This document shows positions 14,589 through 17,677 of a stretch of 25,176 nucleotides of DNA, one piece after another. This DNA is from a virus, in the IMG/VR virus record IMGVR_UViG_3300032038_000604, positions 1 through 25,176 of that record. One strand, 5' to 3'. The notes under the pieces were generated by a model. That model ran no database searches, was not told where the DNA came from, and saw nothing but the letters and a program-made list of their open reading frames with translations. The position numbers were made by a program, and so were the translations under genes. The first letter of the stretch is position 1. Each line of letters opens with the position of its first letter.

Positions 14589-14942
14589 ATGAGAATGTTT
14601 TATACTGCCAGAAATGAATTTGTTGAGGTCTGTGCAATTTATCAAGACCGCACAGCAATGATTTTTGACCCGTATATAGCATCAAAGACAGGACCCAGTG
14701 GCGCTTGGGTAATTGTTAAACTTTCAAAGCTCATCCCCGAAGATTATGTAAATAGAGAAGGCAAGTTTGAAAGCAAAACAGAAAAAAATAAACTTAAGAC
14801 AAGACTCACTCTTCATAATGCAGAATGGGAAGCCACAGATGGAAGTCTTTTTACAAATGTTGAAGATGCTATTGAATATGAAAGACATCTTGCTGGCAAA
14901 GAATATATTGTTAATACCTCAGATTGTATAAAGGAGGCTTAA
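14589..14942 (+). CDS. Hypothetical protein, 117 aa.
   Basis: An RBS (aaaaaaggag) sits 9 nt upstream of ATG 14589. There is no in-frame TAG. It is translationally coupled to the downstream RNA ligase: its stop lies 3 nt before the ligase ATG. I recognise no motifs in it. Confidence 0.55.
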   Translation: MRMFYTARNEFVEVCAIYQDRTAMIFDPYIASKTGPSGAWVIVKLSKLIPEDYVNREGKFESKTEKNKLKTRLTLHNAEWEATDGSLFTNVEDAIEYERHLAGKEYIVNTSDCIKEA

Positions 14943-14944
14943 AA

Positions 14945-16174
14945 ATGTTAAACAAAAACCAAGAAAGAGAACTTGCTTATCTGGTAAAAATAGATGCGGT
15001 AACTCCTATCGCTGGCTACGACAGAGTTGAGCTTGCTCATGTAGGCGGATGGACTATTGTAGTAGGAAAAGGAGAGTTTAAAGCAGGTGACCCCGCAGTA
15101 TATTTTGAAATTGACTCTCAGCTTCCTGAGAAACCACCTTTCTCAGATATGGAGTTTCTTGCTTCAAAACACTATAAAATCAAAACTCAAAAAATGTGTA
15201 AATCTATTTCTCAGGGTTTGCTAATGTCAGTTGCTCAATTCGGATGGGAAATTCAAGCAGATGGTTCTGTATGGGATCCAGGGTCAGGAGACCATGGTCG
15301 CCACGACCTTAATGATGAATCTCGTTTCCTAACAAAAGAATTGGAAGTAACATATGCAGTTCCAGAAGATAACAAAAGAAAAGCAAACTCAGCAGATAAA
15401 TATAAGAAAATGGCTCAACGTCATCCAAAACTTTTCCGCAATAAAGTTATCAAATGGTTGATGAATAGAGGTTGGGGAAAAACTTTACTATTCTTCTTCT
15501 TCGGAAAAAAGAAAGATACTAAAACAGGGTGGCCTGCTTGGGTTACAAAAACAGATGAAGAAAGAATTGAAAATCTACCATTTTTACTTGGTACAAAAAA
15601 GTCTTGGATTGCTACTGAAAAAATTGATGGCACAAGCACAACTTTTACTCTTAAAAGAGGAAAGGGCTTATTTAAAAAGAATGAATTTTTTATATGTTCA
15701 AGAAATGTAGTTTTTGATAAGCCTGATAAAAAATGTTTCTATGATTCTAATGTTTATGTTGAAATGGCAGAAAAATATGAAATTGAGCAAAAACTTACTG
15801 ACATTTTAAATAAACAGCCTGAATATGATTGGGTAACTATTCAAGGTGAAACTTTTGGTGCTTCTATCCAAAAGAGAGACTATCATATGAAAGGGCACGA
15901 TTTTGCAGCATTTAATTTTATCACTTCTACTGAAGGAAGATGGAACTCTGTTGAAATGGATAAATTTTTATCACAATATGGAATCCCTTGCGTACCAATT
16001 GTAAATGAAGATTATGTACTTCCAGATAATCTTGAAACATTAAGAAATTATGTCAATAGAGAAAAATCAAAAATAGATGGGGATATGAGAGAAGGAATAG
16101 TTTTCCGCTCTTTTGATGGTACAAAATCTTTTAAATGTGTATCTCCTGAGTTCTTAATTCGTTTCCATTCCTAA
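14945..16174 (+). CDS. ATP-dependent RNA ligase (Rnl), in the family with an N-terminal extension, similar to DraRnl/NgrRnl/T4 Rnl2. 409 aa.
   Basis: The real start is ATG 14945, after aaggagg. The ORF track starts earlier, at 14924. Nucleotidyltransferase motif I is KIDGTS (EKIDGTSTTF). Motif IV-like is EGIVFRS. Motif V-like is KCVSPEF. The N-terminal ~120 aa (VKIDAVTPIAGYDRVELAHVGGWTIVVGKGEFKAGDPAVYFEIDSQLP) matches the N-terminal OB-like module of that Rnl family. Confidence 0.65.
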   Translation: MLNKNQERELAYLVKIDAVTPIAGYDRVELAHVGGWTIVVGKGEFKAGDPAVYFEIDSQLPEKPPFSDMEFLASKHYKIKTQKMCKSISQGLLMSVAQFGWEIQADGSVWDPGSGDHGRHDLNDESRFLTKELEVTYAVPEDNKRKANSADKYKKMAQRHPKLFRNKVIKWLMNRGWGKTLLFFFFGKKKDTKTGWPAWVTKTDEERIENLPFLLGTKKSWIATEKIDGTSTTFTLKRGKGLFKKNEFFICSRNVVFDKPDKKCFYDSNVYVEMAEKYEIEQKLTDILNKQPEYDWVTIQGETFGASIQKRDYHMKGHDFAAFNFITSTEGRWNSVEMDKFLSQYGIPCVPIVNEDYVLPDNLETLRNYVNREKSKIDGDMREGIVFRSFDGTKSFKCVSPEFLIRFHS

Positions 16175-16240
16175 ATAGTTAGGAGCAACCCCTTTAAAAG
16201 ATTTATCACCAAATACAAGCAATTTTATTATATAAATTTT

Positions 16241-16277
16241 TCAAGACAAGAGGAAAAACTCTTGTCTTGATTTTTTA
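16241..16277 (+). terminator. Intrinsic terminator after the RNA ligase gene. It overlaps the -35 of the next promoter.
   Basis: tcaagacaagag-gaaaaa-ctcttgtcttga 12-bp stem, followed by tttttta. Confidence 0.5.
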
Positions 16278-16295
16278 TAAAAAATTTGTTATAAT
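16267..16295 (+). promoter_or_regulatory. Sigma70-type extended -10 promoter.
   Basis: ttgatt (16267-72), 17 nt, then tg-t-tataat (16290-95), followed by ataattacaataaaaaagaaaggaa. Confidence 0.45.
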
Positions 16296-16330
16296 ATAAT
16301 TACAATAAAAAAGAAAGGAAGTATTCTTCA

Positions 16331-16627
16331 ATGAGAAATGGTAAATATACAATTTCTAAAATGTTTTGTACAAAATGTGGCAGAGAGGGAATCGCAGTCC
16401 CCAGAAAAATTGGCAAATATAGAGAGGCAGGACATCTTAAAAATCTTTATTGCATTTATTGCGGATGCGAAAGAAATCACGTAGAAATTCGTTCAATGTA
16501 TAGTGATTATAATTATGAAGACTTTCAGCTTGAAATGAAATATGGTAATTTTGATGAAGATGGCAACCGCAAAGAACCATATAGAATTTTCAGAGGAAAA
16601 CTTGCACAACAGGAGGTATATGAATGA
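16331..16627 (+). CDS. Small zinc-ribbon protein, 98 aa, with CxxC...CxxC.
   Basis: RBS aaagaaaggaag. Two Cys pairs (CTKCG ... CIYCGC) with His nearby. Its stop TGA overlaps the kinase start (ATGA), so the two are translationally coupled. Confidence 0.55.
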   Translation: MRNGKYTISKMFCTKCGREGIAVPRKIGKYREAGHLKNLYCIYCGCERNHVEIRSMYSDYNYEDFQLEMKYGNFDEDGNRKEPYRIFRGKLAQQEVYE

Positions 16628-17121
16628 GTAATTTATATGTATTATGCGGCGCCCCAGGTTCAGGAAAATCTACTTTTGCTAAAGAAATTTTCCCAAAATA
16701 TTTTCCTGACCATCCTTATAAGATTATTTCTCGAGATACAATCAGATTTTCTTTATTGAAAGATGGAGAAAAATATTTTTCTCACGAAAATGAAGTATAT
16801 CAAATTTTTTGGGACTCTATCAATAAGGCATTAAAAGAAGGATTTGATGTTATTGCAGACCAAACTTCAGTAAGCCCTAATTCAAGAACTTTTTTATTAC
16901 AACATATTTCAGAATATGAAAAAGCCATTGCTATTGAAATAAAAACTCCTTTAGAGATGTGCCTTGACCGCAATAGTCAAAGAACAGGATTAACTTTTGT
17001 CCCACCAAGCGCTGTTAAAAATATGTATTATAGTTATATTTCTCCCACAGTTTCAGAAGGTTTTTCTCAAATTTACACATATGATGCATTAAGAGAGAAG
17101 CTTTTTTCTCATAATATATAA
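16624..17121 (+). CDS. Polynucleotide 5'-kinase, T4 Pnk kinase-domain-like P-loop NTPase. 165 aa.
   Basis: Walker A GAPGSGKST. The downstream ISRDTIR, IADQTSVSPNSR and CLDRNSQRTG...VPPSAVKNMY segments align, from memory, to INRDDYR, ISDTNLNPERR and [22 protein letters not shown] of the T4 Pnk kinase domain. Confidence 0.7.
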   Translation: MSNLYVLCGAPGSGKSTFAKEIFPKYFPDHPYKIISRDTIRFSLLKDGEKYFSHENEVYQIFWDSINKALKEGFDVIADQTSVSPNSRTFLLQHISEYEKAIAIEIKTPLEMCLDRNSQRTGLTFVPPSAVKNMYYSYISPTVSEGFSQIYTYDALREKLFSHNI

Positions 17122-17134
17122 AGGAGGCAGATAT

Positions 17135-17677
17135 ATGAATAATATTTGGATAATTTCAGATACTCACTTTAACCATAATAAAGATTTTATTCTACAGCCA
17201 CGATGTTTTTCAACAGTAGAAGAAATGAATGAAGGAATAATTGAAAAATGGAACTCACTTGTTCAACCTAATGATATTGTCTATCATCTTGGCGATATGG
17301 CGCTTGGAGATATAAATGATGCGATTCCTCTTATAAAAAGACTTAATGGAAAAATTAGGCTCGCTATTGGTAATCACGATACTGACGCAAAATTAAAAAT
17401 ATATAGTACCATTTCTAATATTGAAGATATCCAATTTGGATACAGAATTAAAAAAGGTAAAAGTACTTTTTTACTTACTCATTACCCGCAACTTACAGGC
17501 AATTATGATACAAGTAAAACTTACTCAATTCATGGACATACTCATCTTACAGATACTTTTACAGAAGGGTATGACCTTATGTTTAACGCCTCTTGTGAAG
17601 CTCTTTGTTGTGTTCCTATAAATATTGAAAATATTAAGCAATTAATCCAAGAACATCTTCGGGACAAAAATAATTAA
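17135..17677 (+). CDS. Calcineurin-like metallophosphoesterase. It is the likely 2',3'-cyclic phosphodiesterase / 3'-phosphatase end-healing partner. 180 aa.
   Basis: RBS aaggagg. Canonical MPP motifs are in order: SDTHFNH (D-x-H), LGDMALGD (GD), GNHD (GNH[DE]) and HGHTH. Confidence 0.7.
   Translation: MNNIWIISDTHFNHNKDFILQPRCFSTVEEMNEGIIEKWNSLVQPNDIVYHLGDMALGDINDAIPLIKRLNGKIRLAIGNHDTDAKLKIYSTISNIEDIQFGYRIKKGKSTFLLTHYPQLTGNYDTSKTYSIHGHTHLTDTFTEGYDLMFNASCEALCCVPINIENIKQLIQEHLRDKNN

Follow-up and report, generated by a model that had tools for sequence, protein, structure and literature searches.

A predicted RNA end-healing and end-sealing cassette with an Rnl5-family ligase and a bL33-like zinc-ribbon protein in an uncultivated, TAG-recoded phage

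Phage-encoded RNA repair is a published concept. Phage T4 uses Pnkp and Rnl1 to reverse the anticodon-loop cleavage made by PrrC, and the part of a jumbo-phage survey considered here describes sets of an ATP-dependent RNA ligase, a Pnk, and a phosphoesterase, with occasional calcineurin-like or HD 3' healers (Iyer et al. 2021, PMC7824862). In bacteria, the CthPnkp-Hen1 and Pnkp1-Rnl-Hen1 systems combine a P-loop 5'-kinase, a binuclear metallophosphoesterase, and an ATP-dependent ligase. Here, we analyzed a 25,176-nt stretch of low-GC phage DNA (~30% GC; IMG/VR record IMGVR_UViG_3300032038_000604, positions 1 to 25,176), hereafter referred to as the window, in which five co-oriented open reading frames (orfs) on the plus strand, at 14589-17677, encode a small protein (orf117), an RNA ligase, a zinc-ribbon protein (znr), a polynucleotide-kinase-like protein, and a metallophosphoesterase. 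On balance, we favor the view that this cassette is a two-operon system for healing and sealing RNA ends, expressed from host-type promoters before the TAG-recoded late genes of the phage. What is new is the combination of an Rnl5 ligase, a split-off kinase, an aq_1665-type phosphoesterase, and a bL33-like subunit.

The window shares with T4 the logic of a phage-encoded heal-and-seal system as well as a homologous kinase domain; however, T4 Pnkp carries a fused DxDxT HAD phosphatase for 3' healing where the window has a metallophosphoesterase, and T4 Rnl1 has a C-terminal tRNA-specific domain that the window ligase, which is not an Rnl1, lacks. With the bacterial Pnkp systems it shares all three chemistries, and the CthPnkp kinase domain is the closest solved relative of the window kinase. 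However, CthPnkp is one 850-aa protein, whereas the window encodes three separate polypeptides, and the ligase of the bacterial systems is Rnl4, whereas the window has Rnl5 plus an added bL33-like zinc-ribbon subunit. As for Hen1, the cassette orfs and the orfs scanned downstream gave no Pfam match to a methyltransferase. The jumbo-phage sets, as far as they are covered in the part of the survey considered, use Rnl1, Rnl2, or RtcB ligases, whereas the relatives of the window, many of them on contigs of 130-140 kb, are TAG-recoded, not jumbo, and encode Rnl5; the same part of the survey does not mention a bL33-like zinc-ribbon kinase partner (PMC7824862). Two Bacillus phages, Izhevsk and Tsamsa, have kinase-HD fusions beside RNA ligases, and the window kinase is homologous to Izhevsk gp154. 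Finally, the Rnl5 enzymes DraRnl and NgrRnl have the same N-terminal OB and nucleotidyltransferase domains as the window ligase, with no C-terminal appendage and with all ATP and metal contacts kept, but the window ligase has ~60 extra, strongly conserved residues between the domains. In addition, DraRnl is encoded in an operon with a DEDDh-like exonuclease gene (PMC5397189), whereas the window ligase gene lies beside dedicated end-healing genes.

A mechanical orf listing started the ligase gene at TTG 14924; we placed its start at ATG 14945 because homologues align from that methionine (98% query coverage) and an AAGGAGG sequence lies 7 nt upstream. The protein matches two Pfam families above their curated cut-offs, PF21189 (PHA02142 OB domain, 1.4e-20; 74 bits against a cut-off of 27, aligned to NgrRnl residues 5-102) and PF09414 (RNA_ligase, 2.8e-20). 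An N-terminal OB domain is joined through a conserved linker of ~95 aa to a nucleotidyltransferase domain that has no C-terminal appendage, and the protein ends 12 residues past K397 in motif V. Its best solved relative is the Naegleria gruberi RNA ligase NgrRnl, matched at 9.3e-24 with the single sequence and at 1.5e-55 with the family profile; the next families reached by the profile are DNA ligase and Rnl3 (~1e-4) and T4 Rnl2 (0.025). Nucleotidyltransferase motifs I, III, IIIa, IV, and V are all present, and the ligase has the motif K226-I-D-G. In NgrRnl, the residues that contact ATP and metal are R4, D53, T145, D146, R149, K170, D172, E227, E312, and K326 (PMC7261155), and their equivalents in the window ligase (R8, D57, T203, D204, R207, K226, D228, E302, E383, and K397) are invariant in 29 relatives. 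These include R8, D57, and R207, the counterparts of the Rnl5-specific ATP gamma-phosphate contacts R4, D53, and R149; F320 and F323 are nearly invariant among the 29 sequences. No Rnl1 family or structure was among the Pfam, NCBIfam, and PDB matches of the ligase, in which Rnl5 alone was significant and Rnl2 and Rnl3 were weak. Judged by its sequence, the ligase belongs to the Rnl5 (DraRnl/NgrRnl) family and not with T4 Rnl1. An Rnl5-type ligase is also encoded by Pseudomonas phage PAK_P1 (locus L081, 5025-7133), with a 270-aa hypothetical protein, unmatched in Pfam, encoded after it, possibly an unrecognized partner.

The kinase is a single domain that lacks a fused DxDxT HAD 3'-phosphatase. 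It matches Pfam AAA_33 at 7.8e-19, above the curated cut-off, and its family profile, run against PDB, found the CthPnkp kinase domain (4gp7) as the best match (3.8e-23), along with O-phosphoseryl-tRNA kinase (PSTK, 1.7e-20), T4 Pnk (1ly1, 1.3e-19), Pnkp1 (2.1e-19), and mammalian PNKP (4.7e-13), while adenylate kinases were reached at just 2.4e-5. Against the bacterial Pnkp model TIGR04075, it scored 56.6 bits (cut-off 750), over the kinase segment alone. The protein has a GAPGSGKS P-loop, D38 and R41, which align with the catalytic Asp (D38) and the acceptor-binding Arg (R41) of CthPnkp, and the lid Arg R120; G9, G14, K15, D38, R41, D79, and R120 are invariant in 35 sequences. The kinase thus belongs to the polynucleotide-kinase/PSTK clade.

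The phosphoesterase matches Pfam Metallophos at 6.5e-9, again above the curated cut-off, and contains the motifs D9xH11, G53D54, G79NHD82, H116, and G134HTH137. D9, H11, G53, D54, G79, N80, H81, H116, G134, H135, and H137 are invariant in 39-42 sequences, and the binuclear metallophosphoesterase site is complete. Both by sequence and by fold, it matches Aquifex aq_1665 over the full length, which assigns it to the aq_1665 (MPP_AQ1575-like) subfamily. The fold is equally close to those of LpxH, YfcE, lambda phosphatase, and Ap4A hydrolases, and a specific kinship to Mre11/SbcD or to the CthPnkp phosphatase was considered and rejected, as only the common fold is shared. Because the aq_1665 subfamily is uncharacterized, we infer the substrate and regard the protein as the predicted 3'-end-healing enzyme.

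An initial annotation, made from the sequence alone, had recognized in these genes a ligase with a KxDG motif and an N-terminal OB-like extension, a P-loop kinase with T4-Pnk-like motifs, and a calcineurin-like phosphoesterase with DxH...GD...GNHD...GHTH. At the domain level, all three assignments hold: PF09414, AAA_33, and Metallophos were each matched in profile searches; an RNA ligase matches the window ligase ~50 orders of magnitude better than any DNA ligase does; the kinase groups with polynucleotide kinases and PSTK and not with nucleoside or adenylate kinases; and Mre11/SbcD matches the phosphoesterase no more closely than other metallophosphoesterases do. The parallel drawn with the phosphoesterase of CthPnkp had to be given up, as the window enzyme falls in the aq_1665 subfamily and not in the lambda-phosphatase/CthPnkp clade, which holds the known RNA 2',3'-phosphoesterases.

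The protein encoded by znr is a bL33-like four-Cys zinc ribbon followed by a helical C-terminal extension of 40 aa. The zinc ribbon has the bL33 fold, which is ribosomal-protein-like and RNA-binding, and shares the CxxC...CxxC...HxE pattern with bL33, including phage-encoded bL33 (PMC6375957); however, true bL33 is neither coupled nor fused to a kinase and lacks the helical extension. By hidden Markov model comparison, the similarity of znr to bL33 is not significant (E 0.1-0.3). Among 25 znr members, the best E-value against Pfam Ribosomal_L33 was 0.03, short of the cut-off, whereas genuine bL33 proteins reach 1e-19 to 1e-24. In a profile-profile comparison, hhalign gave 84.5% probability over 44 columns, a suggestive though not conclusive sign of common ancestry. 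At 50% identity, the family falls into 765 clusters; three of its members, which diverge from one another, are fused N-terminally to an AAA_33 kinase. The bL33-like fold of znr and its fusion to a kinase in three independent proteins are new here, and znr would serve the kinase as an RNA-targeting partner. The coupling is not universal, because the small orfs that overlap the kinase gene in Phass-1 and Clostridium phage Amboise were tested and are not zinc-ribbon homologues. Homologues of znr are labeled 'ribosome associated inhibitor A' in 327 phage records, 325 of which have Staphylococcus phage names. In one of these phages, the Kayvirus phiIPLA-RODI, a znr homologue stands alone ('ribosome associated inhibitor A; zinc finger domain'; locus L099, 6001-6219), on the same strand as and 1.1 kb 5' of a tRNA-Asp/Phe/Trp cluster (7381-7612), with no annotated orf between. 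A bolder idea, to which we give little credence, is that znr is a ribosomal-protein-derived targeting subunit that would dock the kinase, the phosphoesterase, and the Rnl5 ligase at the bL33 site of the ribosome near the E site, or on the tRNA surface that bL33 contacts, so that cleaved rRNA or tRNA would be repaired in place.

IMG/VR holds at least 131 related loci, 80 of which were fetched and analyzed for linkage; their ligases are 54-71% identical, and the ligase protein of one locus, L035, is 97% identical to that of the window. Across the 80 loci, the order ligase-(zinc ribbon)-kinase-phosphoesterase is conserved. Taking as the denominator the 68 loci with at least 3 kb 3' of the ligase, the kinase gene lies within 3 kb downstream of the ligase gene in 51 and the phosphoesterase gene within 4 kb in 49; the phosphoesterase gene follows the kinase gene within 300 nt in 51 of 60 loci, and znr adjoins the kinase gene in 43 of 44, mostly through stop-start overlaps or gaps of 1-2 nt. 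Rearranged loci keep the same partners together: in L062, L071, L075, and L079, the kinase and phosphoesterase genes have shifted jointly to ~6 kb upstream of the ligase gene, and in L052-L057, znr and the kinase gene were relocated as a pair. In L047, the gene next after the ligase encodes a 312-aa kinase-HD fusion (9601-10539), and no phosphoesterase homologue was found in that locus. In Bacillus phage Izhevsk (locus L083), a 'tRNA ligase' gene overlaps the gene of a homologous kinase-HD fusion (3501-4475). The domain order of these fusions is the reverse of that in the published HD-Pnk end-healing enzymes. Elsewhere, Listeria phage LP-124 encodes an aq_1665-type phosphoesterase ~1 kb 3' of a 'putative RNA ligase' and ~3.5 kb 3' of an RtcB-like ligase, and phiM12 encodes one ~1 kb 3' of an AAA_33 fragment. 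Of all the evidence that the kinase, the phosphoesterase, and znr work jointly, and do so with an RNA ligase, these replacements and fusions carry the most weight.

The genes of the cassette form two operons, orf117-ligase and znr-kinase-phosphoesterase, each with its own putative promoter motif and terminator (Table 1). Both promoter regions contain the same 27-nt sequence, TTGTTATAATATAWWTACAATAAAAAA, which occurs twice in the window against zero occurrences expected by chance, and a comparable extended -10 element, TGTTATAAT, lies 5' of znr in 25 of 43 relatives. Within the operons, the genes are tightly packed: orf117 and the ligase gene are 2 nt apart, znr and the kinase gene overlap in an ATGA preceded by AGGAGG, and the 13-nt gap between the kinase and phosphoesterase genes contains AAGGAGG. 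The five orfs and their motifs are all as the initial annotation described them, and the genes are adjacent; its 'contiguous early cassette', however, divides into two transcription units. Early timing is an inference: expression from host-type promoters before the TAG-recoded late genes would fit, because the cassette is free of TAG (against 65 in a giant late-type orf and 3 in the lysin gene) and has extended -10 promoters. The cassette is followed by a lysis module and then, 2-3 kb away, by genes for RNase H and a type II topoisomerase. A PADLOC search gave no meaningful match for any cassette protein, which indicates that the cassette is not a known defense system.

Table 1. Positions of the cassette genes and of their putative transcription signals in the window
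Feature	Coordinates	Strand	Remarks
Intrinsic terminator; ends the MVP-like gene and sets the cassette apart	14300..14330	+	14-bp stem, T tract
Putative promoter-region motif TTGTTATAATATATATACAATAAAAAA (extended -10), 5' of orf117-ligase	14539..14565	+	27-nt pattern, two copies in the window
orf117, 117 aa; no known family, variable accessory gene	14589..14942	+	
Rnl5-family ATP-dependent RNA ligase (predicted), 409 aa	14945..16174	+	PF21189 and PF09414, NgrRnl match
Intrinsic terminator after the ligase gene	16241..16270	+	12-bp stem, then TTTTTT
Second copy of the 27-nt promoter-region motif, 5' of znr-kinase-phosphoesterase	16286..16312	+	
znr, zinc-ribbon protein, 98 aa, bL33-like	16331..16627	+	
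Polynucleotide-kinase-like P-loop kinase, stand-alone, 165 aa	16624..17121	+	AAA_33
Metallophosphoesterase, minimal binuclear, 180 aa, aq_1665 subfamily	17135..17677	+	
Intrinsic terminator at the end of the second operon, before the holin gene	17697..17728	+	14-bp stem, T tract

In the mechanism that we propose, a nuclease of the host or of a competitor would leave RNA ends with a 5'-OH and a 2',3'-cyclic or 3'-phosphate. The Pnk-like kinase would then phosphorylate the 5'-OH, and znr, made stoichiometrically with the kinase, would probably bind it and bring it to structured RNA; the aq_1665-type metallophosphoesterase would remove the 2',3'-cyclic or 3'-phosphate; and the Rnl5 ligase, adenylylated at K226, would seal the resulting 3'-OH/5'-PO4 junction. 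Characterized Rnl5 enzymes seal 3'-OH/5'-PO4 nicks in duplexes with an RNA 3'-OH strand, and loop breaks are handled by Rnl1 and Rnl4 (PMC4408790). By analogy with DraRnl and NgrRnl, the sealed site would most likely be a nick in a base-paired segment of a tRNA or rRNA and not a loop break. Because Rnl5 enzymes prefer duplex nicks, a break in base-paired RNA or an RNA-DNA junction is a more likely target than an anticodon loop. The initial annotation had proposed a counter-defense toolkit that reverses anticodon-loop cleavage by host nuclease systems such as PrrC and RloC. Its heal-and-seal role agrees with the linkage and with the replacement of the phosphoesterase by a kinase-HD fusion, and a counter-defense purpose may still apply; its anticodon-loop target is not supported, nor are its links to the MVP-like gene and to a suppressor tRNA (see below). 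As the ligase is an Rnl5 and not an Rnl1, the PrrC/RloC analogy is no longer the default expectation.

Several observations weigh against an RNA-repair role. The ligase scored 100.2 bits against TIGR02306 (RNA_lig_DRB0094), for which the equivalog cut-off is 151.15, and its match splits in two around the 60-aa insertion. We know of no host nuclease that the cassette would counter. The characterized Rnl5 enzymes need a nicked duplex (PMC5397189, PMC4408790), and in D. radiodurans the sole Rnl5 phenotype, sensitivity to radiation together with a delay in genome reassembly, suggests DNA repair; beyond radiation survival in that species, the physiological role of Rnl5 has been described as uncharted (PMC5397189). 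The same enzymology lends itself to a different account, in which the cassette would serve phage replication or repair by acting on DNA ends or RNA-DNA junctions. The kinase and phosphoesterase would clean 5'-OH/3'-phosphate DNA ends as mammalian PNKP does, and the Rnl5 ligase would seal nicks with a ribonucleotide on the 3' side, such as those at primer remnants or ribonucleotide-filled gaps. Rnl5 needs RNA on the 3'-OH strand and tolerates DNA on the 5'-PO4 and template strands, and when DraRnl is lost, reassembly of the irradiated genome is delayed (PMC5397189, PMC4408790); mammalian DNA PNKP is among the matches of the kinase profile, and the RNase H and topoisomerase genes are close downstream. 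We nevertheless consider action on DNA rather unlikely. In cultivated phages, the closest relatives of the kinase adjoin genes annotated as tRNA or RNA ligases, and the solved structures nearest to it are those of RNA-repair Pnkp kinases and of a tRNA-dependent kinase; its partner, znr, has an RNA-binding fold; and the lysis module stands between the cassette and the replication genes.

The remaining points against RNA repair concern the linkage and the phosphoesterase. Related loci share ancestry, so that conservation of gene order alone is weak evidence, and in 12 related loci, the ligase gene is present without a kinase or phosphoesterase gene in the fetched locus, six of these having ~8 kb upstream of the ligase. 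Aq_1665-type phosphoesterases are found in 1471 phage records, compared to 332 for the ligase (about one quarter as many) and 78 for the kinase; a subfamily so much commoner than its supposed partners is not tied to RNA repair, and we know of no substrate for it. It could thus be argued that the genes are neighbors by descent only, with the ligase working alone and with small molecules (nucleotides or cyclic-nucleotide defense signals) or proteins as the substrates of the phosphoesterase and perhaps of the kinase; a phosphoesterase fold equally near to that of enzymes as diverse as those listed above would suit such a role. This account seems improbable to us, given that the kinase and phosphoesterase genes are translationally coupled and relocate together, that an HD domain fused to the kinase beside a ligase takes the place of the phosphoesterase, that the kinase retains the polynucleotide-acceptor Asp and Arg, and that the two operons share a promoter motif.

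RNA end healing and sealing also has to be distinguished from a service to the RNAs of the phage itself, such as the upkeep or maturation of a suppressor tRNA for TAG recoding, or the processing of RNA packaged with the MVP-like protein whose gene precedes the cassette. The phage does reassign TAG, an MVP-like gene immediately precedes the cassette in the window and lies within 2 kb upstream in 11 relatives, and the Kayvirus znr homologue lies 5' of a tRNA cluster. We regard a service to the phage's own RNAs as very improbable, however. ARAGORN found no tRNA in the window, Rfam found no RNA gene there at gathering thresholds, no tRNA or vault-like RNA thus lying beside the cassette, and 47 of 53 related loci scanned also had no tRNA; the MVP-like gene forms a transcription unit of its own; and phages without recoding, e.g., Bacillus and Listeria phages, have homologous modules. 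The suggestion that the cassette protects a suppressor tRNA or the phage's own tRNA pool is unsupported, as nothing ties it to a suppressor tRNA. The position assigned to the cassette directly 3' of the MVP-like gene was correct, at a distance of 294 nt, but a functional link to MVP was not upheld: a terminator separates the two, and among the 48 relatives with at least 5 kb of flank, an MVP-like gene is upstream in 14 and absent upstream in 34. The MVP-like gene itself (11800-14295) encodes 831 aa with matches to MVP_shoulder (2.6e-20) and Vault_3 (2.8e-6; 27.8 bits, cut-off 28.8); it has its own promoter-like region and terminator, and the protein is kept at 55-68% identity in many related phages. 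Large tRNA arrays lie a few kb from the ligase gene in some more distant relatives, as in L049 (489-5961) and L067 (13643-16454), and the L049 array includes a tRNA with a CTA anticodon (tRNA-Pyl according to ARAGORN), a candidate TAG suppressor, ~7 kb 5' of the ligase gene.

The first gene of the cassette, orf117, had been taken as coupled to the ligase. Despite the 2-nt spacing in the window, homologues lie 5' of the ligase gene in just ~12 of 66 relatives, so it is better described as a variable accessory gene; searches of Pfam, NCBIfam, PHROG, and PADLOC and a profile search of PDB all left it unmatched. Across relatives, the slot upstream of the ligase holds at least four unrelated small genes and sometimes extra metallophosphoesterases, DUF5662, or HD_4 (a RelA/SpoT-type hydrolase). 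It is a hotspot, as seen in L031 (953-1774), L032 (7119-7922), L067 (7394-7954), L068 (5286-5840), L052 (7374-7949), and L076 (7334-7924). In L078, an RlaP-like nucleotidyltransferase upstream of the ligase was considered as well, but its match (E 1.7e-3) is below the cut-off and too weak to serve as evidence.

The source of the window is an uncultivated gut or rumen phage. A megablast search with positions 11000-20000 gave no match among cultivated phages, i.e., there is no close sequenced relative; a genome scan found relatives only on metagenome-assembled contigs from rumen and gut, one of them binned as Ruminococcus, the sole hint of what the host may be. TAG is reassigned in the window, where only some of the genes use it as a sense codon. 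On the minus strand, TAG readthrough merges the fragments of an orf at 2410-11637 into 3076 codons with 65 in-frame TAGs, probably one or more late genes of the tail or tape-measure type. Readthrough also joins the two pieces of a GH25-CHAP lysin gene (17969-19564, plus strand; three in-frame TAGs), and a GIY-YIG-type orf (22902-23840, plus strand) likewise has three. By comparison, the five cassette genes and the genes for the MVP-like protein, the holin, RNase H, and the topoisomerase have no in-frame TAG. The gene for the GyrA/ParC-like topoisomerase subunit is split into 22221-22742 and 23974-25176, which correspond to Pfam profile positions 1-144 and 152-431, by a 1.2-kb insert (22743-23973) whose orf has a GIY...YIG-type N-terminus and repeated helix-turn-helix-like modules. 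Relatives such as L005 and L009 have the two halves joined without interruption, which, with the content of the insert orf, suggests a mobile intron or homing-endonuclease insertion; Rfam detected no group I intron at the gathering score.

Rnl5 ligases occur widely, but no natural substrate is known for them, and their sole recorded role is in the radiation survival of D. radiodurans (PMC5397189, PMC4408790). Here, a large clade of phages from gut and rumen keeps an Rnl5 gene in a heal-and-seal setting. The cassette gives a testable role to the aq_1665 phosphoesterase subfamily, which is present in more than 1400 phage genome records, and it draws attention to a family of bL33-like zinc ribbons, coupled or fused to polynucleotide kinases, whose only annotation so far has been 'ribosome associated inhibitor A'. 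If znr does dock the enzymes at the ribosome or on tRNA, this would provide the first defined physiological RNA substrate for Rnl5 and a new accessory component of RNA repair. If the system counters RNA-cleaving host defenses, it would mean that such defenses matter in the Firmicutes hosts of TAG-recoded phages.

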